NCBI GenBank assembly: GCA_964460805.1
Contig: CAYWPU010000001.1
Location: 112,565-176,564, forward strand
Origin: an uncultured Candidatus Saccharibacteria bacterium
Lineage (GTDB): Bacteria > Patescibacteriota > Minisyncoccia > Phycocordibacterales > JACOZG01
DNA: 64,000 nucleotides
Direction: 5' to 3'
Shown: positions 28,565 through 52,858 of the stretch, in pieces
Layout: every line of letters begins with the position of its first letter
Numbering within the stretch: position 1 is the stretch's first letter
Notes under the pieces: generated by a model
Database searches by the model: none
What the model saw: only the letters and a program-made list of their open reading frames with translations
Told to the model about the DNA's origin: nothing
Made by a program: the position numbers and the translations under genes

Positions 28565-29641
28565 ATGGATAATAAAATTAGGGTTCTGATTTTTTCTCTA
28601 GCGCCCTTATCGGCCATTGGTGGTGCGGAGGTGGCGGTTAGGGAATTAACTGAGCGGCTGGGCGATCACTTTGATTTTGCCGTAGTCAGCGCTGACATCA
28701 ATAATTTTTGGTCTAAATATTTTTATCCGCTTTGGGCGGTACGCCAGGCTCTGACCTTACACCGAGAGCGCCCATTTACGCTGGTCTGGTCGATTATGGC
28801 CAATCAGGCTGGTATAGCCGGTGCGCGCTTCAAGAGATTACACCCCAATATCCCATTTTTACTTACTCTGCAGGAGGGAGACGATTTGGGTAGCTTGTCT
28901 TATCGTTTGCGTTTGCTTGTACCCAGATTCTTTAGAGTTTTCCAGCTCGCGGATCATGTCCACGCAATTTCTAATTATCTCGCGCGTTGGGCGTGGCGGA
29001 TGGGAGCAACTTGCCCGATTGCTGTTATTCCCAACGGTGTAGATTTCCAGAAATTTGCCAATGGGCGAGAAACTAGCCGTCACAATTTAGAGAATAGAAA
29101 AGAAGAAATAATTATCACCACGTCTAGATTGGCCAGGAAAAATGGCATTGATATCTTGGTGAGAGCGCTTGCTCTATTGCCGGCAGATGTCAGGCTAGAG
29201 ATTATCGGTGATGGTCCGGAGGAGGCTAATCTCAAGCGTTTGGCCACGAGCCTGCAAGTGGCCGCTAGAGTCTCATTTTGCGGTCAGGTGAGGAGTTCTG
29301 AGGTGGGGCAGTGCTTGGCACGGGGGGCGGTTTTTGCCAGACCATCGCGCTCTGAGGGCCTTGGGAACTCTTTTATAGAGGCTATGGCTATTGGTTTACC
29401 AGTGGTGGCCACGGCGGTGGGTGGTATCCCGGACTTTCTCAAGCCCGGCGAGACCGGCTGGTTCTGCACCGTAGATGATCCGGTCAGCCTTGCCGCTCAG
29501 ATCAAGTATATTTTAGACGAGAAAAACCAAACAGACGTGAGTGAAGTGATAGCTAGAGCCAAAAAATTAGTGTCAGAGAGTTACGATTGGGAGGTGGTTG
29601 CCAAGCGCTTCCACAAACTGCTAGAGTCTATAGTGCAATGA
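28565..29641 (+). CDS. Glycosyltransferase family 4
   Basis: EGLGNSFIEAMAIGLPVVATAVGGIPDF (GT4 E-x7-E region). Confidence 0.75.
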   Translation: MDNKIRVLIFSLAPLSAIGGAEVAVRELTERLGDHFDFAVVSADINNFWSKYFYPLWAVRQALTLHRERPFTLVWSIMANQAGIAGARFKRLHPNIPFLLTLQEGDDLGSLSYRLRLLVPRFFRVFQLADHVHAISNYLARWAWRMGATCPIAVIPNGVDFQKFANGRETSRHNLENRKEEIIITTSRLARKNGIDILVRALALLPADVRLEIIGDGPEEANLKRLATSLQVAARVSFCGQVRSSEVGQCLARGAVFARPSRSEGLGNSFIEAMAIGLPVVATAVGGIPDFLKPGETGWFCTVDDPVSLAAQIKYILDEKNQTDVSEVIARAKKLVSESYDWEVVAKRFHKLLESIVQ

Positions 29642-30654
29642 AGATATTGCTAGCCACCGGGATCTACCCGCCGCAAATTGGTGGGCCGGCAACTTATGCC
29701 ACAAATTTACGCGAGCAATTTATTACGCTCGGTCATCGGGTGAGAATCTGCACATTTTCGCTGGAACATCATTTGCCAGCCGGAATTAGGCATATTTATT
29801 TTTTTGTAAAAATATTTTTTGTAATCTTGTTTTTTTCACCGGATTTTGTGCTCGCGCTGGACACTTTTTCGGTTGGTGTACCTAGTGTTTTAGTCGCCAG
29901 GCTTTTGAGAAGAAAGGTTGTAATTAGAACTGGCGGTGACTTTTTGTGGGAGGGTTATGTAGAACGGACGGGCAATCTAATTCTCCTGCGCGATTTTTAT
30001 ATCAAAATTAAATCAGGAGAAGTGAAGCTGAGTCTGAAAGAGAGAATTATTTTTGGATTAACTAGGTGGACAGTGAGAAATTGCAATCTTCTGGTTTTTA
30101 GCACTATCTGGCAACGAGGAATCTGGCGGGAGCCATATCGGTTGTCAGAAAGTAGAACGGCGATTATTGAGAATCACTTTGCTCCAATTGAAACTGAAAC
30201 TGCGGGCATGGTTCGTGGTCAGTTTTTTCTCAGTGGAGGCCGGCAGATTAAACTAAAGAATTGGTCTAAACTCAAACACATTTTTTCCCAACTTAATTTG
30301 CCGTTAGAGATTTTAAGCTTGCCCAGAGAACAATTTCTCGAGAGCCTACGTCAGAGCTATGCGCTGATTCTGATCTCAGTGAGTGAGATTAGTCCCAATC
30401 TTGTTCTTGATGCCATGCGCTACGGCAAGCCGGTTATCCTCACACAAGAAACTGGTTTGCGAGAGCGTCTGGGAGACACTGTGATCTGGGTGGATCCAAA
30501 TAACGAGGAGGATATCAAAAACAAAATACTATGGTTGATGGATGAAAGTAATTACCGAGTAATCTGTGAGCGAATAAAGAATTTTCGTTTCACTCATTCG
30601 TGGGAAGAAATTGTTGATGAGTTTGTTAAACTATTCCAAACGCAATGCATGTGA
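29638..30654 (+). CDS. Glycosyltransferase family 4-like
   Basis: N-terminus MKILLATGIYPPQIGGPATYA typical of GT4. ATGA start/stop overlap with the previous gene. Confidence 0.6.
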   Translation: MKILLATGIYPPQIGGPATYATNLREQFITLGHRVRICTFSLEHHLPAGIRHIYFFVKIFFVILFFSPDFVLALDTFSVGVPSVLVARLLRRKVVIRTGGDFLWEGYVERTGNLILLRDFYIKIKSGEVKLSLKERIIFGLTRWTVRNCNLLVFSTIWQRGIWREPYRLSESRTAIIENHFAPIETETAGMVRGQFFLSGGRQIKLKNWSKLKHIFSQLNLPLEILSLPREQFLESLRQSYALILISVSEISPNLVLDAMRYGKPVILTQETGLRERLGDTVIWVDPNNEEDIKNKILWLMDESNYRVICERIKNFRFTHSWEEIVDEFVKLFQTQCM

Positions 30655-31700
30655 TTAGCATTGGCTCAGATCGTAAGTTGTTTGAGAAGGGAAGCGAGGT
30701 GCGTCAGCGTCTCGCGACTCTCTCGGCGGCAATGGGCGAGCTTCATGTTATTGTCTTCACCACACGCGCTTATCCCAAATTAGTCAGAGTGTCCAATTCT
30801 CTATTTCTCTACCCGACCAATTCGCGCTCGCGCTGGCTCTATATTTTTGATGCTATCAAATTAGGCAAGGGTTTGCCCGGACCGGATGTAATAACAGCGC
30901 AAGACCCTTTTGAGTCTGGCCTGGTAGCCTGGTGGCTCTCGCGGTTTTTTAAGAGTCGTCTGCAACTACAAGTGCATACTGATTTGTTTAATAGAAACTT
31001 TGTCCGGCGAAGCTTGATTAATCGTGGGCGAGTGATCGTGGCGCGGTTTCTTTTGCCGCGAGCTGATTGTGTGCGAGTGGTGAGTGAGAAGATCGCCGCG
31101 AGCTTGAAGCAAGAAGGCGTTAAGTTGCAACGCGAACCAATTGTCTTACCAGTCTATATTGATACTGAGAAGATTAAAAATGCGCCAGTCCAGACCGATT
31201 TGCATCATAAATATCCTCAGTTTAAGCAGATTATTCTGATGGCTTGCCGTCTAGAGCCAGAGAAGCAATTAGATCTAGCGATCCGAGCCATGCCTGCAGT
31301 GCTAGAGAAATTGTCCCAAGCGGGCTTATTGATCGTTGGTTCTGGGTCACAATTGTCGGCTCTGCGTTCGCTGGTGGCCAGCCTAGGTTTATCTGCAAGT
31401 GTGATTTTTGAACCATGGTGTGATGACCTTGTCTCATATTATAAGACAGCCGATCTCTTCCTGCTGACCTCCAGTTACGAGGGCTATGGTAGAACTGTTG
31501 CTGAAGCTATTGCTTGTGGTCTGCCGGTAATTGCTACTGACGTGGGTAGTGCCAGAGAATTAGGGGCAATAATTTTAAAAGATTTGACCGATTTGCCCCA
31601 GATGACGATAGACCAGTTACAGAGAGGTAAAATGAAACCTTTTCTCCGGTTGCCGGACTGGGACACTTATCGCCGGCTTTATCTTAAGCAATGGTCCTAA
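30645..31700 (+). CDS. Glycosyltransferase family 4
   Basis: SSYEGYGRTVAEAIACGLPVIATDVGSAREL. Confidence 0.7.
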   Translation: MHVISIGSDRKLFEKGSEVRQRLATLSAAMGELHVIVFTTRAYPKLVRVSNSLFLYPTNSRSRWLYIFDAIKLGKGLPGPDVITAQDPFESGLVAWWLSRFFKSRLQLQVHTDLFNRNFVRRSLINRGRVIVARFLLPRADCVRVVSEKIAASLKQEGVKLQREPIVLPVYIDTEKIKNAPVQTDLHHKYPQFKQIILMACRLEPEKQLDLAIRAMPAVLEKLSQAGLLIVGSGSQLSALRSLVASLGLSASVIFEPWCDDLVSYYKTADLFLLTSSYEGYGRTVAEAIACGLPVIATDVGSARELGAIILKDLTDLPQMTIDQLQRGKMKPFLRLPDWDTYRRLYLKQWS

Positions 31701-31715
31701 TTTAAGAATGGTATC

Positions 31716-32726
31716 ATGACCAGACTATTGATACTCACGCAGGCAGTGGATCAGAATAATCCAGTTCTTGGATTTTTCCCTAGCTGGGTGGCCAAGTTCG
31801 GTGGGTATTGTGAGCGTGTTACCGTGATTTGTCTAGAGAGAGGAGAATATTCTCTCCCTGCCAATGTAAAAATCTTATCTTTAGGCAAAGAAGAGAAACG
31901 CGGTCGCTTACGGTATATGCTTCGTCTGTGTCGGTATCTCTGGCGGGAGCACGATAATTACGACACAGTCTTTGTCCACATGAACCAGGAGTATGTTTTG
32001 TTGGCAGCTTGGTGGTGGCGTTTGACTGGCAAGAGGATCTGGTTCTGGCGTAATCACCGCTACGGCAGTTGGCTGACGCGGCTAGCGGTCTGGTTCTCGC
32101 ATCGGGTTTATTACACCTCGCCTCAGTCCTTCACCGCGCGCTTCCGGAAGGCGCGACAGATGCCAGTGGGCATAGATACTACTATTTTTTGTTTACAGCC
32201 AGATGTTGTCAGAGTTCCACGCTCTGTCTTGGCATTAGGACGAATCTCCCGGGTCAAGCGCCTGGATGTTTTATTGCGGGCTTTACTCGTACTCCAAGAG
32301 CAGGGCATTAAATTCAGATCTGACATCATCGGTTCGCCCATCACGCCAGAAGATCGGAAGTATGAGGAAGAACTCAAGCAACTGGCTCAGCCTCTTGTCA
32401 GTGCTGGCCTTACGCAATTTCATCGGGCTGTCCCTCATTTGACTACACCGAGGTCGTACAATTCTCACGAGATCTATGTTAATCTAACCTCTGCTGGCGC
32501 GATGGATAAAACCATATTTGAGGCCCTGGCCTGTGGTGCTATACCAGTGCTTAAACCGGAACAGGAGGTGGTGATAACCGGGCTCGCGCTGGAAATCCAA
32601 AAGATTTTAGATCTGAGTATGGCGCAAAAAGAATTGATCCGGCGGGATCTGACCGAGGAAGTGAGGAGCAGGCAGAGTCTGGACATATTGGCAGAACGAT
32701 TGTTCGCAAACCAGATAGACCAATGA
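31716..32726 (+). CDS. Glycosyltransferase (GT4-like)
   Basis: C-terminal SAGAMDKTIFEALACGAIPVL. Confidence 0.55.
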   Translation: MTRLLILTQAVDQNNPVLGFFPSWVAKFGGYCERVTVICLERGEYSLPANVKILSLGKEEKRGRLRYMLRLCRYLWREHDNYDTVFVHMNQEYVLLAAWWWRLTGKRIWFWRNHRYGSWLTRLAVWFSHRVYYTSPQSFTARFRKARQMPVGIDTTIFCLQPDVVRVPRSVLALGRISRVKRLDVLLRALLVLQEQGIKFRSDIIGSPITPEDRKYEEELKQLAQPLVSAGLTQFHRAVPHLTTPRSYNSHEIYVNLTSAGAMDKTIFEALACGAIPVLKPEQEVVITGLALEIQKILDLSMAQKELIRRDLTEEVRSRQSLDILAERLFANQIDQ

Positions 32727-33814
32727 AAAAAATCTTATTTATCACCAGGGAGTCGTTGTCTGATCCTAAGAGAGGGACGCCAATCAGGATTCTCAATCTG
32801 GTTAGAGAGATGCAGAGGGACCACCAAGTCGTGGTTGCATCTCCGCTAGTGGACAAGAATCTGATCCATGATTATTGTCTCTACCCAAGCCGTTGGTGGT
32901 CGCGGTTTCAATACTTTTCTGAGATCATTAGAGCAGAAGGAATTGATATAGTCATGACTTCTACTGATATTGATATTGACCTACCTGTTTGGCTTAAGTG
33001 GCGCACGGGAGTGAAGATTGCCCTAGACCTCCACGGTCTCTACGCGGCAGAGATGTGTTACCAGGGTCACATGGGGCGAGTCAAGAGTTGGGTCCTGCAA
33101 CAGAAAATTAACTCCCTGATTCGGTTTTACGATCTGGTTTTGCCAGTCTCGCCCAAGTTGCTTGACTTCTATGGTTCTCGGATTAAGAAAGGAGTGGTGG
33201 TGTATGGTGGCGTAACCGAGAGCGATTTTTATCGCGGGCCTGTTTCACAACCAGAGGTTTTCACTATAGGCTATACCGGGAACGCAAAGCCTTATCAGGG
33301 GATAGATAATCTGCTGGCCGCCGCGGTTGACATTAAACGACAGAATCTTTTTCCTTTCCGCCTCAATCTAATCATGAGTAGCGGGCAAGGCGAAATTGAA
33401 GAGAAACTTAAGTCGCTGGGATTATTTGATCTAGCTAGTCTCACTTATAAAGTGTCGCACAAGGAGGTACCAAGGCTGATTGCTCGCTCCAGTGTGCTGG
33501 TAATTGCGCGTCCTAGTGTGGATATGACGGAGTATGCGTATCCTTCTAAATTGCCAGAGTATCTTGCAACCGGTATCCCGGTGGTGGCCACCCGGGTGGG
33601 ACCGATCGAGGCGCTCTTCCGTGACCAAGATTTTTTGATCGTCATTGATCCCGCTAATCCGGTAACCGAGTTGGTCCAGGCACTACTTAAACTAAATCGG
33701 TTGTCAGTAGCAGAACGAGCACGTATGGGTGCCCGAGCCATCCAGTTTGTGCGCGATTATCTCACATGGGAGCACATTGGTCGGGTTGCCAACCAAGCTC
33801 TAGGATCTATCTAA
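32723..33814 (+). CDS. Glycosyltransferase family 4
   Basis: YPSKLPEYLATGIPVVATRVGPIEALF. Confidence 0.7.
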   Translation: MKKILFITRESLSDPKRGTPIRILNLVREMQRDHQVVVASPLVDKNLIHDYCLYPSRWWSRFQYFSEIIRAEGIDIVMTSTDIDIDLPVWLKWRTGVKIALDLHGLYAAEMCYQGHMGRVKSWVLQQKINSLIRFYDLVLPVSPKLLDFYGSRIKKGVVVYGGVTESDFYRGPVSQPEVFTIGYTGNAKPYQGIDNLLAAAVDIKRQNLFPFRLNLIMSSGQGEIEEKLKSLGLFDLASLTYKVSHKEVPRLIARSSVLVIARPSVDMTEYAYPSKLPEYLATGIPVVATRVGPIEALFRDQDFLIVIDPANPVTELVQALLKLNRLSVAERARMGARAIQFVRDYLTWEHIGRVANQALGSI

Positions 33815-33819
33815 ACTGT

Positions 33820-34635
33820 ATGAAAACGACGCAACAGGTTTATCGGACTATGTGGGAGGATATTGGTGGGGATGCTGGGCGTGGTTATCTTGAGATCAAG
33901 TTCCGCCCCACTTACCGCATTGGTCTTACCAACCACGTCCGCGAGTGGGCGATATATCGCTTTCTTGATCCTAAGCCTAGCGATAAGGTCTTGGACGTGG
34001 GTTGCGCTTCCGGTCGGCAAATATTCCGAATTATTAATCGTGTTGCCGAGGGGCATGGGGTGGATATTGCTGCGAGCTTCATCGCCGTAGCCAATCGTTA
34101 CCGGTCCGAGCAGGGATTAATACGGACTTCTTTCCAAGTTGCGGCCATTGAGTCATTGCCTTTCACCGATGGCTATTTTGATAAACTAATTTGTGGCGAA
34201 GTGCTTGAGCATGTCTTTGATAGAGACGTGGCTTTAGCCGAATTGCGCCGTGTACTCAAGCCCGGCGGCTTGTTAGTCATCACTGTGCCTAATCTCAATG
34301 CCGACGGTACGTGGTGGGGGAGGCTTCTGAGGTATTTTAAAATCAGATCATTTACGCCCATGACGGAGTTTTCTCAAAAGGAGTTACATCGGCACGGTGA
34401 TTCTCATGTGAGAGAATTTACAGCTGAGACAATGCGTGATTGGCTCGAGGGTCGGCAATGGCAGGTCCTTGATCTTACCACGGCGTCATTTATTGATGGG
34501 CCTTGCATTGATTGGCTACTAAAGGTGCCCCTGCATTTGCCACCTGCTCGTTGGTTAATCATCCGATTGGAGTATTTTTTTACTTGGTCTCGGCTCAGAT
34601 TGGGTCGCCACCTGGTGGTGAAAGCTCGTCGCTAA
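33820..34635 (+). CDS. Class I SAM-dependent methyltransferase
   Basis: VLDVGCASGRQ (motif I) and LKPGGLLVITVPN. Confidence 0.7.
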   Translation: MKTTQQVYRTMWEDIGGDAGRGYLEIKFRPTYRIGLTNHVREWAIYRFLDPKPSDKVLDVGCASGRQIFRIINRVAEGHGVDIAASFIAVANRYRSEQGLIRTSFQVAAIESLPFTDGYFDKLICGEVLEHVFDRDVALAELRRVLKPGGLLVITVPNLNADGTWWGRLLRYFKIRSFTPMTEFSQKELHRHGDSHVREFTAETMRDWLEGRQWQVLDLTTASFIDGPCIDWLLKVPLHLPPARWLIIRLEYFFTWSRLRLGRHLVVKARR

Positions 34636-34652
34636 TCTGGTAAACTCGATAG

Positions 34653-34871
34653 ATGAATAAGTTCCTGCTCTGCGTAGTCAAGATCTTGGGCCACTGCTTC
34701 AAGTCTCTTAAACTGCCGCTTTTTAGCACCGACTTCATGTCTGCCTGGGCTTGGCGAGCATCTAATGGCGAGATCTATACGGCGGTGAAGACGGCCCCAG
34801 CGGTGACTGTGTTACCCTATTGGCAAGAGGGTGAGCGTTACTATGTACTCCTGATCGAGCAGTCGCGCTGA
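34653..34871 (+). pseudogene. Possible NUDIX-hydrolase N-terminal remnant
   Basis: AVTVLPYWQEGERYYVLLIEQSR followed by a stop, resembling the NudF-type start V.VLPY....VLL..Q.R. No Nudix box follows. Confidence 0.25.
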
Positions 34872-35010
34872 AATTGCCAGGACTCAAATCTGGGATTTCC
34901 CTGGTACTTGAGGTACTGAATCAGGCCCCAGGCCGTCATGAATACAGCCTGGGGCTAAATTATTGGAAAAGTAACGTCAAGATGCTAGGATATGAGATGC
35001 TTTCTAGACT

Positions 35011-35967
35011 ATGGCGAAGATTTTAATCACTGGCAGTAAGGGTGTAGTGGGGACTTGGCTCGTACAAATCTTGACCGCGCGAGGCCATGAGGTTTTCGGT
35101 GTTGATCTCATCCACCACCTAGGCTCAGTAGGTTTTGAACAGGAGATGTCGCGGGGCAAATTCCACTATGCCCGTTGCGATGTGGCCAATTTTCGCCAGC
35201 TCGAGCGTGTATTCCAGAAGGCTGGTCCTTTTGCTTTTGTCTATCATTGCGCCGCGGAGTTTGGTCGCTGGAACGGTGAGGACTATTATGAGCAGGTTTG
35301 GCAGACCAACGCGATTGGTACTAAGAACCTGATCCGTCTGCAGGAGAAACTAGGCTTCAAACTCATCCACTTTTCGTCTTCTGAAGTCTACGGTGACTAT
35401 CCAGAGGTGATGGAGGAAGAGGTGATGAACAGGGTAGAAATCAAGCAGATGAACGATTATGCTCTGTCCAAGTGGGTCAACGAACAACAGATCCGTAACT
35501 CAGCCATCAAGCATGGTACGCAGACGGTCATAGTGAGACTCTTTAATACCTATGGTCCCGGCGAATGGTATCACCCCTACCGTAGTGTAAACTGCAAGTT
35601 CTGTTACCACAGTCTCCACGGTATCCCGGTAGTAGTTTATCGCGGACATTCGCGCACCTCCACCTATCTTGAGGATACTTGTCGCACGCTGGCCAATATC
35701 ACTGATAACTTTAAACCCGGTTTAGTCTATAACATCGGCGGCAAGGTACAGCACGATATTGAGACCTTGGCTGGTATTATCTGGAAACACTCTGGCGCTT
35801 CCGAGCACCTTATTAGCTATGCCGACTCGGAGGTGCTGACTACCAAGGTCAAGCTGGTCGATAGTACCCGTGCCGAGCGCGATCTCGGTCACGCTTCCAC
35901 TGTAGATCTAGAGGAAGGTATTCGTCGCACCATTGATTGGATGAAGGAGTACTACCGCTTTGTCTAA
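35011..35967 (+). CDS. NAD-dependent epimerase/dehydratase (SDR family)
   Basis: ILITGSKGVVGTWL (Rossmann) and YALSK (YxxxK). Confidence 0.8.
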   Translation: MAKILITGSKGVVGTWLVQILTARGHEVFGVDLIHHLGSVGFEQEMSRGKFHYARCDVANFRQLERVFQKAGPFAFVYHCAAEFGRWNGEDYYEQVWQTNAIGTKNLIRLQEKLGFKLIHFSSSEVYGDYPEVMEEEVMNRVEIKQMNDYALSKWVNEQQIRNSAIKHGTQTVIVRLFNTYGPGEWYHPYRSVNCKFCYHSLHGIPVVVYRGHSRTSTYLEDTCRTLANITDNFKPGLVYNIGGKVQHDIETLAGIIWKHSGASEHLISYADSEVLTTKVKLVDSTRAERDLGHASTVDLEEGIRRTIDWMKEYYRFV

Positions 35968-36364
35968 CTCTTTGATCTCTCAGTTTCGACGTTATCCGGT
36001 TTTTGTTTTCGTAGGCGTGGTTGGTGTGGTACTTAACTTAGGGCTTACATATGTTTTCACTGACCTTCTAGGTTGGTGGTATTTACCCTCTTTTATATTA
36101 GCCACCTTGGTGACCTGGTCTGTTGGTTTCTGGCTTAATTCTCAGCTAACCTTTTCTGGTCACAACCAGGTCAATTTTTGGAAGTCTTATTTAAAGTTCA
36201 TATCCTTATATTTATTATTGAGTCCACCGGCTTTCTATCTCATTTATGCACTTACTTCCTGGGTTCATCTTCACTATCTTGTGAGCGCGTTATTGGTTAA
36301 TATTTTAAGTTCTGTGCTTACCTTCCTGATTACTCAGAGGCGAATTTTTAATTATTGCCCCTAA
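35960..36364 (+). CDS. GtrA-family membrane protein (polysaccharide synthesis/translocation)
   Basis: 134 aa. Four TM helices. N-terminus YPVFVFVGVVGVVLNLGLTYVFT is typical of GtrA. Confidence 0.65.
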   Translation: MSNSLISQFRRYPVFVFVGVVGVVLNLGLTYVFTDLLGWWYLPSFILATLVTWSVGFWLNSQLTFSGHNQVNFWKSYLKFISLYLLLSPPAFYLIYALTSWVHLHYLVSALLVNILSSVLTFLITQRRIFNYCP

Positions 36365-36372
36365 ATTTTTCT

Positions 36373-39876: not shown

Positions 39877-39885
39877 TATGCAAGC

Positions 39886-42299: not shown

Positions 42300-42302
42300 C
42301 TT

Positions 42303-43406: not shown

Positions 43407-43411
43407 ACAGG

Positions 43412-45067: not shown

Positions 45068-45076
45068 TTTACACAC

Positions 45077-46063
45077 ATGTACTTTATTATCACTGTCGAT
45101 ACCGAGGCCGACAACCAGTGGGCTAGAGAATCAACGATTACTCTCAATAATATCCCTTATCTGCAGCGCTTCCAGGATCTCTGCTGTAAATACGGATTCC
45201 CCGTCACCTACCTGGTGACTTATGAGGTGGCAGAGTCGGATGAGGCCGTTAATCTTCTAAAGCGTTTTGTTGCAGAGTGCGGAGCAGAAGTTGGGGCCCA
45301 TCTTCATCCCTGGACCAATCCGCCCTACGACCACAACGACCTATCCTGGGAGAGGAGTGTCCATCGCTTTCCTCATGAGCTTGAACGTAATCTGCTACGC
45401 TGCAAGCTGGAGTCGTTGACTAGTCTAATCACTAGTCGTTTCGGCGTTAGGCCTACCAGCTATCGGTCTGGTCGCTGGGGTTTCAATGGCGTGGTTGCGG
45501 TCGAGCTCATTAGACTGGGTTATCTGGTTGATTGTTCAGTGACACCCAAGCTTTCTTGGGTTTCTAATCTGGGCGATCCCCAAGGTCGAGGTGGTCCGGA
45601 TTATCGCTCAGCACCGGCTTGTCCGTATCATCTAGACTTGGATGATGTGAATAAGCCGGGTCCCAGTTCCTTGCTGGAAGTACCCCTTACCACCCTTTTC
45701 ACTACCAGATTATTTGCTGGCGGGGACCAGTCTCGCTTGGCTAAGTGGTTTCTGGGATTGCCCGATTCCCAGCTCAAGCGGTTACTTAATCACATGCTTT
45801 TCCGGATGCGGACATTGCGAGTATTCCCCAATTCTCGGGCCCGCATGTTCCGGTCCATACTAAGAGCCGCAGAGGCCGAGTGCTTACCAGTACTGGAGTT
45901 TATGATCCATTCCAGCGAGCTCATGCCGGGAGGTAGTCCGTATGCCCAGTCTGCCACGGAGGTGGAGCGGACTTATGTTTTACTGGAGAGGATGTTACAG
46001 TTGTTCCAGGCGCGTGGCCTGCAGGGTGTCACTCTCAGTGCTTACGCTCAGAAGGTTGATTGA
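45077..46063 (+). CDS. Putative carbohydrate esterase family 4 (polysaccharide deacetylase)-like protein
   Basis: IITVDTEAD (cf. NodB TFDDG) and HLHPWTN (cf. H-x-x-H). Weak. Confidence 0.3.
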   Translation: MYFIITVDTEADNQWARESTITLNNIPYLQRFQDLCCKYGFPVTYLVTYEVAESDEAVNLLKRFVAECGAEVGAHLHPWTNPPYDHNDLSWERSVHRFPHELERNLLRCKLESLTSLITSRFGVRPTSYRSGRWGFNGVVAVELIRLGYLVDCSVTPKLSWVSNLGDPQGRGGPDYRSAPACPYHLDLDDVNKPGPSSLLEVPLTTLFTTRLFAGGDQSRLAKWFLGLPDSQLKRLLNHMLFRMRTLRVFPNSRARMFRSILRAAEAECLPVLEFMIHSSELMPGGSPYAQSATEVERTYVLLERMLQLFQARGLQGVTLSAYAQKVD

Positions 46064-46066
46064 TGT

Positions 46067-46750
46067 ATGTTTAAGAGAATAGCTAAGCTTTTGCTAGAGA
46101 AGAACCAGAAACTGCGCCATTTTGCTGTGAGCAAACTGGTTAGATTACATAATTATAGCCATCACAAGATTGCCGAGCTGGCTAGTCTAGATGAGGGCAA
46201 TATTCACCCCAAGCACCGCTTAACACAGTACCACCGGTTTTTTTTAGACAGAGTGTCGCCAAACGATAGAGTTTTAGACGTGGGTTGTGGGGCGGGTTAC
46301 TTGGCTTACGCGATAGCCTCGGTAGCTAAACAGGTGGTGGGCGTGGATATCTCTGCGGCTAATATTGACTACGCTACAACTCACCACCACCGAGATAATC
46401 TAAAGTTTATTTTAGCCGATGTGACCACTTACCCCTGGGCAGGACATTTCGACAAGATAATCTTGTCGAATGTGCTGGAGCATATCAAGGATCGGATAGC
46501 TTTATTAAAGTCACTGGCTAAGCTTAGCGATACCATTCTCTTTAGGGTGCCAATGGAGACTCGCGATTGGCTGACAATGTACAAAAAAGAAAAAGGTTTT
46601 GAATATCGTTTGGATTCTACCCACTACATTGAGTATAGTCTTGAGACAATCCAGTCGGAGTTAAGTGCGGCTGGTTGGACCGTGGCCGAGTCTCAGATCA
46701 ACTGGGGGGAGTTTTGGGCTGTGCTTAAGAGAACACATGAACCGGCATAG
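46067..46750 (+). CDS. Class I SAM-dependent methyltransferase
   Basis: VLDVGCGAGYLAYAIA motif I. Confidence 0.7.
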   Translation: MFKRIAKLLLEKNQKLRHFAVSKLVRLHNYSHHKIAELASLDEGNIHPKHRLTQYHRFFLDRVSPNDRVLDVGCGAGYLAYAIASVAKQVVGVDISAANIDYATTHHHRDNLKFILADVTTYPWAGHFDKIILSNVLEHIKDRIALLKSLAKLSDTILFRVPMETRDWLTMYKKEKGFEYRLDSTHYIEYSLETIQSELSAAGWTVAESQINWGEFWAVLKRTHEPA

Positions 46751-47825
46751 CATTTTATTCCTCGTTAATAGCCTTGGTGTTGGCGGAGCGGAGCGGGCCA
46801 TGGTGGCCCAGGCTAATTATTTAGCTGATCGGGGCCAGAAGATTGTTTTTGTAACCTTACGACCCACAAATCAGGCTCTTTCTCTGGTGGGCGAATTGGA
46901 TGGTCGCGTGGAGTATTTTTGTTTAGATTGGCGGGCGCTTTTTGACCCTCACTCGTTTAGGAAAATAAATACCCTCGTTCGGTCTTGTTATGCAAGAACA
47001 ATATATGCCACTTTGGATCAGGCTATCATTGTGTCTAAATTGCTTAAGATTGCTCACCCGGGATTGAGATTAGTTATACGCGAGTCGGGCGTGGCCAGTC
47101 GCAAGAGTTGGCGGCTGAAGCTCTTGGATCTCGTTACCAACTGGATGTGCTACTCTATCATTGCTGTGTCTCCCGAGGTGGCAGAGAGTCTATTGGCCTA
47201 TCAGTCCATCTACGAAGGCAAAATCAGAATTGTCTCCAATGGAGTAGATTTACCTGCCCCGGTGATTCGTTCCAATAGAGATGTCCTCATCCTATTGCAT
47301 GTCGGGTCTATGAATAATCCAGGCAAAAGGCAGAGTGAGATCATTAAAATTTTTGGCGAAATTGTGCGTCGGACAAAAGAAAAACTCTCACTCGTCTTAG
47401 TGGGTGATGGTATATGTCGTCCAAGATTGGAGGCTCAAGTGCAATTCGCCGGTTTGGGGCAGAAGGTTATCTTTACCGGCTTACTCTCTCCCGCAGAGCT
47501 CTCTAATCTCTACGATCAGGCAGATATCTTTCTGCTCTATTCGGTAACTGAGGGGTCCCCCAATGTTGTTCTTGAGGCGATGGCTCACGGCTTGCCCATC
47601 CTGTCCACCCGTATTCCTGGAGTGAATGAGTGTGTGCTGGATCAAGCGACTGGATTATTGTCAGATGAGGGTCAACAAGAGCGGTATATTGATAACCTGC
47701 TCCGTATGATCAGCGACCGGGGTCTCAGACTCTCGCTGGGGGAGGCGGGCAGAAAGCGGGTCATGGCCCGCTTTCTCTTGGGACACACAATAGCTAAACT
47801 GGAACCGATTTTACTTTTTGACTAA
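46737..47825 (+). CDS. Glycosyltransferase family 4
   Basis: N-terminus ILFLVNSLGVGGAERAM and C-terminus VTEGSPNVVLEAMAHGLPILSTRIPGVNE. Confidence 0.7.
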   Translation: MNRHSILFLVNSLGVGGAERAMVAQANYLADRGQKIVFVTLRPTNQALSLVGELDGRVEYFCLDWRALFDPHSFRKINTLVRSCYARTIYATLDQAIIVSKLLKIAHPGLRLVIRESGVASRKSWRLKLLDLVTNWMCYSIIAVSPEVAESLLAYQSIYEGKIRIVSNGVDLPAPVIRSNRDVLILLHVGSMNNPGKRQSEIIKIFGEIVRRTKEKLSLVLVGDGICRPRLEAQVQFAGLGQKVIFTGLLSPAELSNLYDQADIFLLYSVTEGSPNVVLEAMAHGLPILSTRIPGVNECVLDQATGLLSDEGQQERYIDNLLRMISDRGLRLSLGEAGRKRVMARFLLGHTIAKLEPILLFD

Positions 47826-48648
47826 AATACGATTAAATCTGAGTCTAAAAATGCAGAAACTTAACTTCTCTCATTTTCGCCAAATTGTCCACGTCACCAA
47901 GCGGCAACGCATGGAAAGCGACTGGCTCTACGCTCTACTGCGCTCTGTTTCTGTCCGCTGTTCCTTTTGGCTCCTGAGTCTTTTTCCAAGTATTAGGCCT
48001 AACCACGTGTCATTAATGATGGTGCTGCTGGTGGGAGGGGTACTGATATCTAATCTCTACCCCTTCTCCGTTCCGGCGTATCTGGTTTTGCTAACCCAGC
48101 TCTTGCTCTTGCAATTAGCTTCCTTGTGTGATCGTGTTGATGGTGAGATAGCACGTTATCAGCAGCACTTCACTCAACGAGGCATATATTACGACCGAGT
48201 TTTTCATTTCCTTTACCCTTTTGCTCTCTATCTTGCTGTGGGTCACTACTTTGCCCAACTTCACAATCTCTCTTGGTGGCTAACGCTTGCTATGTTGCTA
48301 GCCATCCTGTCTGTTTTGGTGGGGATACAGGGCAAGATGCGTCATCATATCAAGTTTAAGATTTTGCTCGAAGGGCATCCCGAACTTATCAGGGATCTGT
48401 ATCCCAGCAGTTCTACCTCTCCGATTTTGGGGAGAGGGTGGCGCTTTTTTCATTATCTCGTTTTCATGACCTATACCTGGGTATCGGGCCTGTATTTATT
48501 CTTGCTGATCTTGAGCCAGTTCTCTCTGTATTGGTCTTCTGGGCTCTACCTCTTACACGCGTTTATTTCTATCGTCTGGTTCTCTTATTACTTGTTAGTA
48601 ACCTACCCCAGTCACGCTTTGTTCTCCAAGCAAGACTTCCAACTCTAA
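47818..48648 (+). CDS. CDP-alcohol phosphatidyltransferase-family membrane protein
   Basis: CDRVDGEIARYQQHFTQRGIYYD fits D-G-x2-A-R-x8-G-x3-D. Multiple TM segments. Confidence 0.45.
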   Translation: MTKIRLNLSLKMQKLNFSHFRQIVHVTKRQRMESDWLYALLRSVSVRCSFWLLSLFPSIRPNHVSLMMVLLVGGVLISNLYPFSVPAYLVLLTQLLLLQLASLCDRVDGEIARYQQHFTQRGIYYDRVFHFLYPFALYLAVGHYFAQLHNLSWWLTLAMLLAILSVLVGIQGKMRHHIKFKILLEGHPELIRDLYPSSSTSPILGRGWRFFHYLVFMTYTWVSGLYLFLLILSQFSLYWSSGLYLLHAFISIVWFSYYLLVTYPSHALFSKQDFQL

Positions 48649-49919
48649 GTCGAAGTTGACGGAAGCGGGAAGGCTTTATGGAAATAGTATTGGTAGACGA
48701 AAGTATTGAGGCCGTTACCGATGATTGAACCACAGACAGCGCCCCAGATACCCCATACTGGCAACATTAGGGCAAAAACACCGATCCGTATGAGCGGCGC
48801 GATAATACGCACAGCGTAGAGCTCTTTCTGCTTCATATGAGCGGTCATAGCGGTAGAGAAGAAGGTGCGTGGGAAGAAGAGTAGCGAGAGGGCGTAGACC
48901 TGAGAGAGCAGTAGTGCGCTTGTGTACTTGGGGAAGAAGAGGGGAAAGAGTAGGGGTGAGACTACCCAATAAGCCGCCACTGCTAACAAGATCAGCACCT
49001 CGAGGCGTAGCATTTTACCAGGTAGTGTCTGGCGGATTGTCTCGGGTGTGTCGCTGGCGCTGAGCTTGGGTAGAGCGAGGACGGACATGTTCTGGAGCAA
49101 GCTCTTGATCTGTCCTGGCGCTGAGGTTGCAATGATGTAGACAGCCAGTTGCGCCGCGCCTAAGTAGTGGAAGATCAACAACTTATCGATTTGTCCGGCT
49201 ACAGTCTTGAGTACTTCCATCAGACTGAGGTGGAAGCCGTAGCGGCCCAAAGAGGTAGTGTTGCTACTGACGGCGAGAGAGCTGGGTCGTAGACGGTAGA
49301 GAAAGAGGCTCTGCAGGATAATCTCTGGCACGAAGTAGACAACGATCAATAAGAGCAAATTGTCACTAAAGAAGAGGAACAATAAGATGCTAAGGGTGTT
49401 GAGTATCCTCACGGCGCTGGCGCTGTAGGCTAGGCGTCGGAAATCTCGCCGACCATTGAGGAGGGCCTCATACATGCCGCTCGCCGACACCAGCGGGATA
49501 CTTACCGCGCAGATCATCACACTGAGTGCGAGTGTGATATTGCCTTGTGCCAGATAATATAACGCTACGCCACCAGAGAGCACAGTGGCGAGTAGGGAAT
49601 AGGAGAGCTTTTTCTGTAATAGCCGCCAGAAGCTGGTCTCGTCACCGGAGGCGACACCCTTGATCGCGGCGGTATTGATACCGGGGAAGGTGGCCACCAT
49701 CAGCACGCTCATAATGGAGAGCACGTAACGGTAGTTGCCGTAAGTTTCAGCTGGGAGGAGATTGGCGAAGGCGATAGCGAGCAGTAATGACGAGATGGAT
49801 GCCACGGCCTGACTAAAGGTGAGCCAGACGCTGCCCTTGGCCAGATAGACCATATCAGTCTTGGTGTAGCGCTCGCTCCAGCGCAGAGTCTGGTGGGCCT
49901 TGTGTCGCCAGGTGCTCAT
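48645..49919 (-). CDS. Wzx-like oligosaccharide flippase (MOP superfamily polysaccharide biosynthesis protein)
   Basis: About 12 TM segments. N-terminal LPAETYGNYRYVLSI is typical of Wzx/PF01943. Confidence 0.6.
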   Translation of the reverse strand: MSTWRHKAHQTLRWSERYTKTDMVYLAKGSVWLTFSQAVASISSLLLAIAFANLLPAETYGNYRYVLSIMSVLMVATFPGINTAAIKGVASGDETSFWRLLQKKLSYSLLATVLSGGVALYYLAQGNITLALSVMICAVSIPLVSASGMYEALLNGRRDFRRLAYSASAVRILNTLSILLFLFFSDNLLLLIVVYFVPEIILQSLFLYRLRPSSLAVSSNTTSLGRYGFHLSLMEVLKTVAGQIDKLLIFHYLGAAQLAVYIIATSAPGQIKSLLQNMSVLALPKLSASDTPETIRQTLPGKMLRLEVLILLAVAAYWVVSPLLFPLFFPKYTSALLLSQVYALSLLFFPRTFFSTAMTAHMKQKELYAVRIIAPLIRIGVFALMLPVWGIWGAVCGSIIGNGLNTFVYQYYFHKAFPLPSTST

Positions 49920-50000
49920 TTTGTCTCCATACTACCATTTCCGCGGAGATGTGCTAAAGTGTTCTGCAATATAGTAAACACTGACAAACTCTGTAATTAC

Positions 50001-52181
50001 ATGAGCTTTCAACGCTATTTAATCTGGGCGATTGCGAGTGGCCTCTTCTTGCTTCTCCTCACCCCCCTGATCATCTCCAGTAGCCTCTTTTTCCCATATA
50101 TTACCGGCAAAGCCTTTTTCTTCCGGGTTATCGTGGAGGTCGTCTTCTGTCTCTGGCTCTTGCTGGCCTGGCGGGAGCCGGTCTATCGCCCGCAACGCTC
50201 GTGGATCATGTGGGGTGTGCTGGCACTTTTTGCCGCAAGCGCGCTGGCTACTGTATTTGGTGCTAACCCATACCGCAGCTTCTGGTCCAACTGGGAGCGC
50301 ATGGGCGGTCTGGTGAGCTATCTACACTTGCTAGCCTACTTTTTAGTAATCAGCGCCGTGTTCCGCAGTGAGCAGATATGGCGTTGGTTTTTCCGTAGTT
50401 CCATTTTTGTGAGCATGTGTGTGGCTGGTTACGGTTTAACGCAGTTCAGCGCCACGCGCGTGGATAGCACCCTTGGCAATGCCACTTACTTGGCTGTGTA
50501 CATGCTCTTCCATATTTTCCTCACAGCTTTCTTGCTGAAGCAAGACTGGAAAATAGTCTGGACAAGATATCTATATGGTCTAGTCGGCTTGCTACAGATC
50601 CTGATCTTGTATAAAACAGCCACGCGCGGTGCCATCCTAGGCTTGCTGGCGGGCGTTGGTGTGACGGCCTTGTGCTTGCTGGCTAAGCGCTGGCGCGAGC
50701 CGCGAGTGCGCAAGCTTGGCCTCGGTTTATTGCTGGTGTTGCTTGTGATTGTAGCGGGCTTCTGGAGCGTGCGGGATAGCAATTTTGTGAAAAACAGCTC
50801 CGTGCTCTCGCGCTTTGCCGATATCTCGCTACAAGAAGGCGGTAGTGCAGAGTCTCGTTTTACCATCTGGCAGATGAGCTTGCGTGGATTTGCCGAGCGG
50901 CCACTGCTCGGCTGGGGACCAGAGAACTTTGAGCTGGTTTTTGCTAAATATTTTGAGCCCAAGCTCTGGCGCCAGGAGCCCTGGTTTGATCGTTCGCACA
51001 ATATCTTCCTAGACTGGCTAATTGACGCCGGCGCGCTGGGCTTGCTCGCGTATCTCTCGCTATTTGCCTCGGCGCTCTGGTATATCTGGCGCTCGCGCGT
51101 GCGCGACTCGCTCACTCAGAGCCTGTTCACCGGCTTGCTCGCGGCTTATCTTGTTAATAATATTTTCGTCTTTGATAACCTGGTGAGCTATATTTTATTC
51201 TTCTCCCTGCTCGCTTATTTGCACGCCCAATCTTTGCCTAATCAACTTGAGCAGAGAGTGAGACACGTAGACGCGCCTGTCACTCCCGCGTTCTGGCTCA
51301 CGGGTGGCGTGCTTCTGGTTGCCCTCTGTGGTGCGGTGTATGTGGTGAACATCAAGCCGATGTTCGCGGCCTCGCGCTTGGTGCAGGTGCTTGGTCCGGT
51401 GAGTCAGGGCGTGGCGCCAGATGTGATCGTGAGCGAGCGCTTGGAGAAGTTCCGGCAGATTGCCTCTGCCCGCACTCTTGGCTCGCGCGAGGCGGCCGAG
51501 CAACTGGCCAACCAGGCCACGCAGATTGCCGCCTCTCCGGCCGTATCTGAGCCGCTCAAGCAAGAGATCAGCGCTCTGGCGATTGCCGAGATGGAGCGCG
51601 AGGCTCTCGCCGCGCCAGCGAGCGCGCGGACTAAATTAATTCTCGGCACCACTTACCTCAAGCTTGGCAAGACGCCGGAAGCTCTAGAGATTCTTGCTCA
51701 AGCTCACGAGCTGGCACCGCGCAAGCAGGCTATCATCTTCGCTCTTGCCTCGGCGCATCTCGCCAGCGGTGACGAGGAGACGGCCCTTGAGCTGGCCCAG
51801 CAAGCTTTCAATCTAGACGAAGCTTATCCAGAAGCGCGCAAGTTCTACGCGCTCGCGCTCATCCAGAGCGGCGATGTAACCACGGCGGGAGAGATCCTTG
51901 CTGGCGACCAGGCACTAGAGCTAGACGACAGATTCTTGAACGCTTATGTGGAGGCCAAGCGCTATGATCTCGTCTTCAAGCTCTGGCAAGATAAAGTGAA
52001 AAAAGAGCCAGGCAATACCCAGTTCCGGTTCTCACTTGCCGCGGCTTACCTGATGACGAACCAGCGCGCTTTGGCAATTCAGGAGTTAGAAACTGCGGCG
52101 GAGATTGACCCGCGCCTGGTGCCGCAAGTCGCGCGCCTAGTGAGCGAGATCCGCGCGGGGCGGAATCCAATTTCCCAATAA
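50001..52181 (+). CDS. O-antigen ligase-like (Wzy_C domain) polytopic membrane protein with C-terminal TPR repeats
   Basis: About 10 TM segments. Wzy_C-like loop region ...LYKTATRGAILGLLAG.... C-terminal roughly 250 aa of TPR-like helices. Confidence 0.55.
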   Translation: MSFQRYLIWAIASGLFLLLLTPLIISSSLFFPYITGKAFFFRVIVEVVFCLWLLLAWREPVYRPQRSWIMWGVLALFAASALATVFGANPYRSFWSNWERMGGLVSYLHLLAYFLVISAVFRSEQIWRWFFRSSIFVSMCVAGYGLTQFSATRVDSTLGNATYLAVYMLFHIFLTAFLLKQDWKIVWTRYLYGLVGLLQILILYKTATRGAILGLLAGVGVTALCLLAKRWREPRVRKLGLGLLLVLLVIVAGFWSVRDSNFVKNSSVLSRFADISLQEGGSAESRFTIWQMSLRGFAERPLLGWGPENFELVFAKYFEPKLWRQEPWFDRSHNIFLDWLIDAGALGLLAYLSLFASALWYIWRSRVRDSLTQSLFTGLLAAYLVNNIFVFDNLVSYILFFSLLAYLHAQSLPNQLEQRVRHVDAPVTPAFWLTGGVLLVALCGAVYVVNIKPMFAASRLVQVLGPVSQGVAPDVIVSERLEKFRQIASARTLGSREAAEQLANQATQIAASPAVSEPLKQEISALAIAEMEREALAAPASARTKLILGTTYLKLGKTPEALEILAQAHELAPRKQAIIFALASAHLASGDEETALELAQQAFNLDEAYPEARKFYALALIQSGDVTTAGEILAGDQALELDDRFLNAYVEAKRYDLVFKLWQDKVKKEPGNTQFRFSLAAAYLMTNQRALAIQELETAAEIDPRLVPQVARLVSEIRAGRNPISQ

Positions 52182-52340
52182 ACCGCCAGAATCTGGCTTA
52201 AATTAGACCCAGCTTTTTTCTTTTTCCAAATTTCTCAAATAGACTTGCTTTATTTTTTTATTTCTGCTAGACTAGTCCCCGTGGGTGCGGTTGCTGGCGC
52301 AAGCTGGCACTGCTCCGCTAAATGTAAATGTCTTGCGTAA

Positions 52341-52364
52341 GGCCCCCTCTCGTAGGGGGTTTTG
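52341..52364 (+). terminator. Hairpin CCCCCT-ctcgt-AGGGGG followed by TTTT
   Basis: 6-bp GC stem plus T-run, 160 nt downstream of the Wzy_C gene and inside the structured intergenic element. Confidence 0.45.
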
Positions 52365-52367
52365 CGT

Positions 52368-52398
52368 GTCCCGTTAGAAGCCTTGCTTCTAACGGGAC
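52368..52398. repeat. Perfect 13-bp inverted repeat GTCCCGTTAGAAG-ccttg-CTTCTAACGGGAC
   Basis: Same arms as 914-925 and 965-976 upstream of pilB. Confidence 0.6.
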
Positions 52399-52785: not shown

Positions 52786-52816
52786 TCGTCTCTGTTCCGG
52801 TCTGTATTTAGCAAAT

Positions 52817-52858
52817 AATCCCGCTGTCTCAACCAAGAGAGGCGGGATTGTTTTTTGT
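52817..52858 (+). terminator. Rho-independent terminator AATCCCGC-(17 nt)-GCGGGATT followed by TTTTTT
   Basis: 8-bp perfect stem plus T6. Confidence 0.6.

Follow-up and report, generated by a model that had tools for sequence, protein, structure and literature searches.

Gene content of the island

The 64,000-nucleotide stretch of contig CAYWPU010000001.1 analysed here (the window) carries, between positions 28565 and 52181, a compact run of 21 glycan genes spanning approximately 23.6 kb. An initial annotation had described this region as a surface-glycan island of roughly 23 kb, unusually rich in methyltransferases, and the listing of open reading frames (ORFs) together with Pfam scans confirms this: five methyltransferase domains were found, all of them inside the island. 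The window also encodes type IV pilus genes, ComEC, MurB, SecA, and a ribosomal protein cluster. Domain evidence was drawn from Pfam, NCBIfam, PDB-sequence, and fold searches, the Pfam scans taking in 50 ORFs of the window; nearly all of the original domain calls were borne out where they had been placed, and those for the family 4 glycosyltransferases (GT4) pass the Pfam cutoff. Methyltransferase domains occur in 5 of the 21 island genes and in none of the 29 other ORFs scanned, for which a hypergeometric count gives roughly 0.01. Better evidence of the richness in methyltransferases comes from related loci, four of which (L006, L012, L013, and L014, read across ~20 kb each) possess five methyltransferases apiece; this is therefore a mark of the locus type and no quirk of a single genome.

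Features lie on the plus strand unless stated otherwise. Nineteen plus-strand genes (28565-48648) overlap or, with corrected starts, are separated by no more than 25 nt, the sole exception being a gap of 375 nt at 34636-35010. The gene overlaps noted initially at 29638 (ATGA), 30645, 32723 (also ATGA), 35960, and 46737 are all present. The genes had been called co-linear, which is true of these 19 but not of the Wzx gene, which lies on the minus strand, divergent from the Wzy_C-TPR gene. Cotranscription of the island genes, as predicted from this packing, is plausible. Promoter and terminator counts across 33000-52900 do not exceed those of shuffled sequence and are thus uninformative on operon structure, and an Rfam scan of the whole window revealed no RNA family.

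The variable locus opens with GT4 a (28565-29641), which scores 125 bits against the Glycos_transf_1 cutoff of 26.4; its NCBIfam matches to BshA, TuaC, and EpsE are all sub-threshold. The ATG of GT4 b (29638-30654; 38.9 bits) overlaps the stop codon of GT4 a, and the L012 ortholog is 40% identical. GT4 c (30645-31700; 100 bits) has orthologs in L012 and L009. GT4 d (31716-32726) is the weakest of the series and a marginal match at 28.2 bits, with an L012 ortholog that is 50% identical, while GT4 e (32723-33814) matches Glyco_trans_1_4 at 50.2 bits and is 54-56% identical to its orthologs in L007 and L012. Together with GT4 f (start 42303) and GT4 g (start 46737) there are seven GT4 genes above the Glycos_transf_1 cutoff, where eight had been counted. 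An anti-phage "conflict" system was considered, given that four of them also match the GT4-conflict model, and was rejected: generic GT4 models score much higher every time.

GT4 e is followed by MT1 (33766-34635; Methyltransf_31, _11, and _25 at 71-81 bits), a class I S-adenosylmethionine (SAM) methyltransferase the coding sequence of which probably starts at ATG 33820. In L007 and L012, orthologs with 57-62% identity follow GT4 e in each case. Four such enzymes are free-standing, as had been claimed (starts 33766, 39064, 39886, and 46067; Pfam Methyltransf matches of 50-81 bits), and the fifth domain heads a 551-residue protein discussed below. The non-coding gap that follows MT1 contains remnants of two genes (34710-34908). 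A tblastn comparison reveals 47% identity over 53 residues to the N-terminus of a 164-residue ORF preceding the short-chain dehydrogenase/reductase (SDR) gene in L012, and 73% identity over 15 residues plus the stop to the C-terminal end of a 232-residue ORF in the same position in L006. This looks like a recombination or deletion scar left by the shuffling of modules, at the junction of two of them.

The central part begins with an extended SDR predicted to act on a nucleotide sugar (35011-35967; Epimerase 124.7 bits), which is the best-conserved gene of the locus, its relatives being 72-77% identical. It had been annotated as an SDR epimerase. The SDR assignment stands; the closest match, at 329 bits to PDB entries 8W3U and 9AR1, is Mth373 of Methanothermobacter. 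That protein, crystallised with UDP-xylose, has been described as a UDP-xylose synthase. The Mth373 motifs EYGRW, SAE, YAITK, and TTKVK read EFGRW, SSE, YALSK, and TTKVK in the island protein, which resembles a UDP-xylose synthase (UDP-glucuronate decarboxylase). Next are a small membrane protein of the GtrA family (35960-36364; GtrA_DPMS_TM 56.7 bits, cutoff 26.1), a putative flippase partner for a polyprenyl-phosphate sugar, and an AsnB-type glutamine-dependent amidotransferase (36373-38196; Asn_synthase 315 bits, plus GATase_7 and GATase_6). Both had been named correctly, AsnB scoring 436.9 bits against the TIGR01536 cutoff of 267. With its start at ATG 36373 the N-terminus reads MCGIIG, so that the Cys2 nucleophile is present.

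The single family 2 glycosyltransferase (GT2; 38183-39064) matches Glycos_transf_2 at 116.9 bits, as anticipated. Near-full-length alignment with the structures of ArnC (2e-19), GtrB sll0501 (3e-15), and DPMS (3e-13) places it in the polyprenyl-phosphate sugar synthase type, which is its predicted activity; hydrophobic segments at residues 209-279 correspond to C-terminal membrane helices, and the top NCBIfam matches (AglJ, ArnC, PgfS, and PpgS) are all sub-cutoff. Two methyltransferases, MT2 (39064-39876; Methyltransf_23 and _11 at 50-56 bits) and MT3 (39886-40641; Methyltransf_11 67 bits), separate this gene from that of a 553-residue membrane protein (40638-42299), with which MT3 overlaps by 4 nt. 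Orthologs of MT2 that are 57-62% identical lie directly upstream of the same membrane protein gene in L007 and L008, and orthologs of MT3 (44-47% identical) abut it in L009, L012, L013, and L014.

The 553-residue protein had been called GT-C-like, and its predicted model indeed adopts a GT-C glycosyltransferase fold. Neither the PDB sequences nor Pfam nor NCBIfam contain a match, leaving the fold search as the informative one, and HMMER reveals no relation to any described GT-C family. The family is an orphan with 16 representatives among 1.84 billion protein clusters. The best fold matches include the mycobacterial AftA, AftD, AftB, and PimE, and STT3, AglB, and PglB are also among the matches. 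The last three raise the possibility of an oligosaccharyltransferase, which was set aside since no WWD-type motif is found in the invariant columns and the gene follows that of the polyprenyl-phosphate sugar synthase in most loci. An invariant Asp lies in the first outer loop, where a Gtr-type module has an acidic residue. The three parts of such a module, GtrA, a GtrB/ArnC-type GT2, and a GT-C fold, lie within 6.3 kb of one another. In the window, the gene directly upstream of that for GT-C encodes a methyltransferase, and the same holds for seven of the eight related loci in which the upstream region is covered (in L006 the order is methyltransferase, GT2, GT-C). The GT2 gene and at least one methyltransferase gene are likewise found just upstream in the window and seven of the eight, L015 possessing the methyltransferase only.

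The closest mechanism for such a side route is found in the Gtr system (GtrA, GtrB, and GtrC) and the ArnC/ArnD/ArnT pathway. The island differs from these in that its GT-C protein is unrelated by HMMER to the described families, its acceptor is not lipopolysaccharide (LPS), and one or two methyltransferase genes stand between those for GT2 and GT-C; we know of no Gtr or Arn operon with methyltransferases in this position. SAM is available only in the cytoplasm. A methyl group on a sugar added by the GT-C protein must therefore be put on at the lipid-linked stage, which fits the presence of a methyltransferase upstream of the GT-C gene.

GT4 f (42303-43406; 101.7 bits) is next to or near the GT-C gene in every locus, with orthologs in all nine related loci (39-47% identical). 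It is followed by the gene for the 551-residue protein (43412-45067), which consists of a Zn-ribbon-like N-terminus with a weak Trm112-like match at residues 8-62, a methyltransferase at approximately residues 96-246 (Methyltransf_25 54.8 bits), and a FemAB-like domain at approximately residues 300-551. The methyltransferase part of the fusion originally proposed is clear; the FemAB-like part falls below the Pfam cutoff (15.3 bits against 24) and is backed instead by a family profile. All 57 homologs of this C-terminal part of 250 residues are free-standing proteins of no more than 254 residues, most of which carry a precomputed PF02388 match, and a profile built from 24 members matches the aminoacyl-tRNA-dependent peptide synthase 9wqw at 1.7e-7 and FemX at 6e-5. 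The FemAB-like assignment thus holds at the family level, the use of aminoacyl-tRNA being a prediction. In L013, L014, L015, and L016 the two halves are encoded by adjacent separate genes, the fusion being confined to the organism of the window. There, it is no isolated call, for an independent assembly (L001) has a 551-residue gene called at the same position, and records of the protein exist from three contigs. Fusion in this organism alone hints, by Rosetta-stone reasoning, at a substrate common to the methyltransferase and the FemAB-like protein. Participation of the domain in peptidoglycan bridge formation was considered, and is less likely, as five loci keep the gene within the glycan block, flanked by those for a methyltransferase and a deacetylase.

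The deacetylase or deformylase in question (45077-46063; 328 residues) shows a CE4 / glycoside hydrolase-deacetylase fold. The initial call of a putative CE4 esterase finds no Pfam backing in the window copy, which lacks a Polysacc_deac_1 match and, like the GT-C protein, matches no Pfam or NCBIfam family. Support comes from family profiles, with 13 of 26 family members matching Polysacc_deac_1 (best E-value 3.8e-8), and from the fold, a barrel with an Asp, His, His metal site. MT5 (46067-46750; Methyltransf_23 70 bits) comes next, and its orthologs, which are 53-60% identical, always follow the deacetylase gene wherever the latter occurs. The linkage of methyltransferase, FemAB-like protein, and deacetylase suggests that at least one methylation takes place on an amino or aminoacyl group. 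GT4 g (46737-47825) scores 106.9 bits, its best NCBIfam match being stp2 at 124 bits, which is sub-cutoff.

The last of the 19 genes encodes an atypical member of the CDP-alcohol phosphotransferase family (47851-48648), for which the initial assignment was correct (CDP-OH_P_transf 32.5 bits, cutoff 22) and the start is corrected to ATG 47851. The best PDB match is AF2299 (1.8e-5). The signature DxxDGxxARx8GxxxDxxxH, which appears as DRVDGEIARx8GIYYDRVFH, has His in place of the usual last Asp, and this His is invariant in all four aligned orthologs, suggesting a sub-family with altered chemistry.

The island closes with the two membrane proteins that had been recognised as a Wzx-like flippase and a Wzy_C-TPR protein. 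Wzx (48645-49919, minus strand), of the MOP superfamily, matches Polysacc_synt at 44.8 bits (cutoff 28.2) and has orthologs that are 43-57% identical. The Wzy_C-TPR gene (50001-52181) most likely starts at ATG 50001 rather than at GTG 49893, and its product matches Wzy_C at 86.8 bits (cutoff 31.7) along with several TPR families. Hydropathy suggests a core of 12 helices and one extra helix, followed by a C-terminal TPR domain of approximately 270 residues. After a large outer loop at residues 258-334 there is the sequence RSHNIFLDW, with an SHN motif; a Wzy_C domain with a conserved His in this position is typical of PglL/PilO-type O-oligosaccharyltransferases but shared with WaaL ligases, and is thus non-discriminating. 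We regard this protein as a putative ligase or O-oligosaccharyltransferase; a polymerase is less likely. In L006, L014, and L015 the locus likewise ends with an ortholog of this architecture, and every locus contains exactly one protein of the Wzy_C family.

Related loci and cassette replacement

Nine related loci (L006-L009 and L012-L016) were compared using tblastn, and every island gene has an ortholog in at least one of them at 30-77% identity. The synteny comparison proposed with the initial annotation thus reveals a mosaic of shared blocks in all nine and, as noted above, five methyltransferases in each of four. GT4 a to d are held in common with L012, and GT4 e and MT1 with L007 and L012. 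A core of SDR, GtrA, AsnB, GT2, methyltransferase, GT-C, and GT4 f is common to nearly all. The right arm, composed of the methyltransferase and FemAB-like protein, the deacetylase, MT5, GT4 g, the CDP-alcohol transferase, and Wzx, is kept in L013, L014, L015, and L016. In addition, a B12-binding radical SAM enzyme is encoded inside the glycan cluster of L013 (1831-3801); as a possible C-methyltransferase, it would add to the methylation theme.

A related species (L017) has DNA that is ~78-80% identical across the shared genes. It matches the window through tuf and the genes for S10, L3, L4, L23, and L2, then through a VirD4/TraD-like ATPase, up to base 28559. Beyond this base it has a different glycan cluster on the other strand, encoding GT2, GT11, Methyltransf_21, GT9, Methyltransf_23, and GT2-DUF6492 proteins. 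Base 28565 is therefore a sharp left boundary, beyond which lies a replaceable glycan locus; by gene content, the right boundary is between 52181 and SecA at 52885. The cassette has been swapped between related species at a conserved chromosomal site, a pattern that resembles cassette exchange at O-antigen and capsule loci between conserved flanks. Replacement of the whole locus had escaped the initial annotation, as had the orphan status of the GT-C family and the absence of an initiating phosphoglycosyltransferase from the window.

Between 26000 and 53000 the only repeat is a conserved GT4 motif; no long direct or inverted repeats flank the island, and no integrase or transposase was seen, so that nothing marks it as a self-mobile element. 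Its GC content is 49.2%, against 52.7% outside, a difference too small to argue for a recent foreign origin. The named homologs of the locus-specific proteins belong to Candidatus Parcubacteria, Vogelbacteria, Taylorbacteria, and Zambryskibacteria, and from these names we surmise that the organism is a Parcubacterium, a single-membrane member of the candidate phyla radiation (CPR). At least five independent sequencing runs (SRR22388160, DRR774217, SRR32675156, SRR31322477, and SRR31322476; L001-L005) have yielded contigs that encode proteins identical to the window's, the GT-C protein and its neighbours among them, which means that the organism and its cassette have been sampled repeatedly.

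Proposed route to the glycan and its alternatives

From gene content, folds, and synteny we infer the following order of steps, with their substrates and acceptor. On balance we lean towards a locus for the assembly, on a polyprenol carrier, of a single large and heavily modified oligosaccharide, which is transferred en bloc to a surface acceptor, probably protein. The chain would be started by a phosphoglycosyltransferase encoded outside the window, a step for which related loci carry Bac_transf, and lengthened in the cytoplasm by up to seven GT4 enzymes. AsnB may amidate a carboxyl group, probably that of a uronic acid; this would agree with an SDR resembling a UDP-xylose synthase that would also use UDP-glucuronate. 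Still in the cytoplasm, the CE4-fold enzyme would take off an N-acyl group and the FemAB-like domain would add an amino acid to the freed amine, where the fused methyltransferase, MT5, or both may methylate; the remaining methyltransferases would act on the sugars. Wzx would flip the lipid-linked oligosaccharide. In parallel, GT2 would make a polyprenyl-phosphate monosaccharide, possibly methylated in the cytoplasm by MT2 or MT3, GtrA would help to flip it, and the GT-C enzyme would add the sugar to the glycan outside the membrane. Finally, Wzy_C-TPR would move the finished glycan en bloc to its acceptor. Secreted proteins, for example an S-layer protein, pilins, or PKD-domain proteins, are the likeliest recipients, through a Ser, Thr, or Tyr residue. 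Candidates encoded nearby are the pilins (4630-6120) and PKD or FN3 proteins (16758-17240 and 57924-59006). The product had been described as a heavily O-methylated, amidated glycoconjugate. Gene content supports methylation and amidation and does not tell O- from N-linkage; a protein glycan or a wall polymer, as was suggested, is a sensible guess.

Where this scheme and its strongest competitor part company is in the role of the Wzy_C-TPR protein. The locus could instead direct a repeat-unit polysaccharide (a capsule, exopolysaccharide, or secondary wall polymer), with Wzy_C-TPR as the Wzy polymerase, its TPR domain handling the growing chain, and an enzyme encoded elsewhere, for example an LCP ligase, attaching the product. 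Wzx and a Wzy_C-family protein are, after all, the core of Wzx/Wzy-dependent synthesis, related loci possess a WbaP-like Bac_transf initiator as capsule and exopolysaccharide loci do, and the mix of AsnB, FemAB-like, CE4-type, and stp2-like GT4 proteins recalls the XrtA/PEP-CTERM loci, in which the best, sub-cutoff, NCBIfam matches lie. However, neither the 50 scanned ORFs nor the genes listed for the related loci include a chain-length regulator (Wzz/PCP), tyrosine kinase, LCP ligase, or export component, and no exosortase or PEP-CTERM protein was seen. Compared with a classical Wzx/Wzy locus, the island has the Wzx and lacks the initiator as well as the separate polymerase, regulator, and ligase. 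The seven GT4 enzymes and GT-C imply about eight or nine sugars; a repeat unit of that length would be a large one. We therefore hold a repeat-unit polymer to be unlikely. Transfer en bloc to protein is favoured by the same observations, namely a single Wzy_C protein per locus with no regulator, kinase, or LCP ligase, and a set of glycosyltransferases implying one large unit, not a short repeat; moreover, Wzy_C joined to TPR is the architecture reported for WsfB and PglL (PMC2943079).

A second alternative gives a central place to the CDP-alcohol transferase, which would join with GT4 g in building an anchor, either a phospho-alcohol lipid or a glycolipid, comparable to the phosphatidylinositol mannosides. 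GT-C would extend the resulting membrane-anchored lipoglycan outside, as in lipomannan and lipoarabinomannan, and Wzy_C-TPR would be a WaaL-like ligase, WaaL being a Wzy_C protein that joins glycan to lipid. The transferase is kept beside GT4 g and Wzx in five loci, among characterised proteins it is nearest to inositol-phosphate transferases (AF2299, archaetidylinositol-phosphate synthase, and DIPP synthase), and AftA, AftD, AftB, and PimE are among the fold matches of the GT-C model. Against this, the last Asp of its catalytic motif is His, the locus contains neither an inositol-phosphate synthase nor a cytidylyltransferase, the scores of the GT4 proteins with glycolipid synthase models fall far short of the cutoffs, and a TPR domain is more usual for protein partners. 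Furthermore, the curated genome of a Parcubacterium lacks fatty-acid synthesis genes (PMC5220378), such that a dedicated lipid anchor pathway is not expected. A lipoglycan thus strikes us as very doubtful. An ordinary LPS O-antigen cluster, with Wzy_C-TPR as WaaL acting on lipid A-core, can draw upon Wzx, the "O-antigen ligase" Pfam domain, and the many GT4 genes, and is scarcely conceivable, since the locus-specific homologs come from Parcubacteria, Vogelbacteria, Taylorbacteria, and Zambryskibacteria, the curated Parcubacterium genome has no lipid A genes (PMC5220378), no lipid A, Kdo, or outer-membrane gene occurs among the 50 scanned ORFs, and no NCBIfam O-antigen equivalog is reached.

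Several observations nonetheless count against the en bloc scheme as a whole or against single steps in it. No initiating phosphoglycosyltransferase is found in the 64-kb window, either by tblastn with the Bac_transf proteins of L013 and L014 or among the 50 scanned ORFs; in L013, L014, and L016 a Bac_transf gene lies between those for Wzx and Wzy_C-TPR, and it is absent from L015 as from the window. Ligases, O-oligosaccharyltransferases, and polymerases cannot be told apart by the Wzy_C domain, the PglL_A and Wzy_C_2 models of Pfam, which are typical of proteobacterial PglL, show no match at E-values up to 0.01, and a location of the TPR domain outside the cell is suggested by a crude hydropathy count only. 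The GT-C model is of moderate confidence (predicted local distance difference test score 70), with poorly predicted loops. The FemAB profile aligns only to the C-terminal half of FemX and 9wqw (residues ~147-305), the domain being approximately 250 residues in length compared with ~335-420 for the two-lobed proteins. The island contains no UDP-glucose dehydrogenase or other uronic-acid gene, so that the substrate of AsnB is a guess. Lastly, the CDP-alcohol transferase, with its non-canonical motif, finds no clear place in the scheme.

A more far-reaching reading may also be put forward, which we consider decidedly improbable. In a clade of Parcubacteria, the CE4-fold enzyme would strip the N-acyl group from an amino sugar already linked to lipid, a FemAB-type transferase of half size would load the amine from aminoacyl-tRNA, and the methyltransferase fused to it would carry out N-methylation; a second sugar would be methylated on polyprenyl phosphate and added outside by GT-C, a family hardly found beyond these loci; and the cassette would be swapped between related species, governing host attachment or phage escape. 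Such a route would be undescribed for any glycan.

Known systems, significance and neighbouring genes

Among characterised systems, the S-layer slg clusters of Paenibacillus alvei and Geobacillus stearothermophilus resemble the island in involving a single membrane, a polyprenol carrier, and predicted transferases, WsfB and WsaB, of the Wzy_C type (PMC2943079). WsfB of P. alvei, a predicted O-oligosaccharyltransferase, and Neisseria PglL are Wzy_C proteins with a C-terminal TPR motif, and the P. alvei cluster includes an AsnB homolog, wsfA (PMC2943079). The Geobacillus S-layer glycan is likewise tailored by a methyltransferase domain (PMC2943079). The island departs from the slg clusters in its five methyltransferase domains, its module of FemAB-like protein and deacetylase, its orphan GT-C, and its atypical CDP-alcohol transferase, as well as in having no initiator in the locus, no rml genes, no ABC transporter, and no identified S-layer gene; the likeness to WsfB and WsaB is drawn at the level of domains.

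In size and make-up the island is very similar to the 27-kb general protein O-glycosylation cluster of Tannerella forsythia, which is polycistronic and contains wzx, five glycosyltransferase genes, three methyltransferase genes, an AsnB-type amidotransferase gene, and genes for nucleotide-sugar enzymes (PMC6120980). It produces a methylated decasaccharide, specific to the species, that is carried by surface proteins (PMC6120980). The resemblance is compositional rather than one of demonstrated orthology. T. forsythia belongs to another phylum, has a two-membrane envelope and pseudaminic acid genes, and neither a GtrA/GT2/GT-C module nor a FemAB-like gene is listed for its cluster.

The XrtA/PEP-CTERM exopolysaccharide loci share with the island an AsnB-type amidotransferase and stp-like GT4 proteins, to which AsnB and GT4 g have their best NCBIfam matches. 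These loci also hold a FemAB-related protein and a CE4-type deacetylase. The XrtA equivalogs are not reached, with scores of 422.9 against 816.9 for eps_aminotran_1, 124.4 against 409 for stp2, and 92.6 against 442 for stp3; the FemAB-like and deacetylase proteins matched no NCBIfam model, and neither an exosortase nor a PEP-CTERM protein occurs among the scanned ORFs of the window.

The layout had been called non-standard for an O-antigen or capsule. It does match no described O-antigen or teichoic acid cluster, its relatives being unannotated Parcubacteria contigs, but it is less exotic than was claimed, since a pathway with Wzx and a Wzy_C-family protein is joined to a GtrA/GtrB/GT-C side-branch module, and the P. 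alvei, Geobacillus, and Tannerella clusters are similar. The logic is thus familiar, while the conserved combination of an orphan GT-C, a module of FemAB-like protein, deacetylase, and methyltransferase, an altered CDP-alcohol transferase, and approximately five methyltransferases is undescribed. The literature searched contains no description of such loci in Parcubacteria or Patescibacteria.

Genomes of this group are typically very small, for which 21 genes in 23.6 kb represent a large investment. In a related species the cassette is sharply replaced, which points to diversifying selection acting on the surface glycan. One report describes cultivated members of the group as living attached to other microbes (PMC11623550); given such a lifestyle, the cell surface is probably the first point of contact for hosts and phages. 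According to the paper on the curated Parcubacterium genome, the structure and formation of the envelope are unclear in every CPR bacterium so far studied (PMC5220378). The island provides a lead on this envelope and does not contradict current understanding. Targets for enzymology include the GT-C family absent from Pfam and NCBIfam, the fusion of a FemAB-like protein and a methyltransferase in a glycan pathway, and the CDP-alcohol transferase with its altered motif.

Elsewhere in the window, the type IV pilus set (950-8029) comprises a PilB-like ATPase, a PilC-like platform protein, and a 632-residue choice-of-anchor R protein. At 4630-6120 there are genes for at least two pilin-like proteins that bear methylation motifs at the N-terminus, with a 156-residue ORF between them; these pilins are possible glycosylation targets. 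Immediately upstream of the island lies the gene for the VirD4/TraD/TrwB-like coupling ATPase, a protein of 564 residues with a Pro/Ala/Lys-rich tail, the L017 copy of which is 85% identical in amino acid sequence. The AT-rich stretch between rplB and the island (26099-28560) contains two minus-strand ORFs, one of 118 residues (26111-26467) with one membrane helix and one of 88 residues (26460-26726); in place of these two small ORFs, L017 has a gene for a 463-residue discoidin-domain protein.

The str/S10 cluster (17302-26098; S12, S7, EF-G, EF-Tu, S10, L3, L4, L23, and L2) ends after rplB, and no genes for S19, L22, or S3 are found in the remaining 38 kb of the window. L017 shows the same break (934-3784), with non-ribosomal genes next. 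Few bacterial gene orders are as conserved as this one, and such a split in it is unusual. Within the cluster, fusA and tuf, normally a tight pair, are unusually spaced by approximately 1.6 kb (20361-21973), an interval occupied by ORFs without a family match, for example one of 226 residues at 21174-21854.

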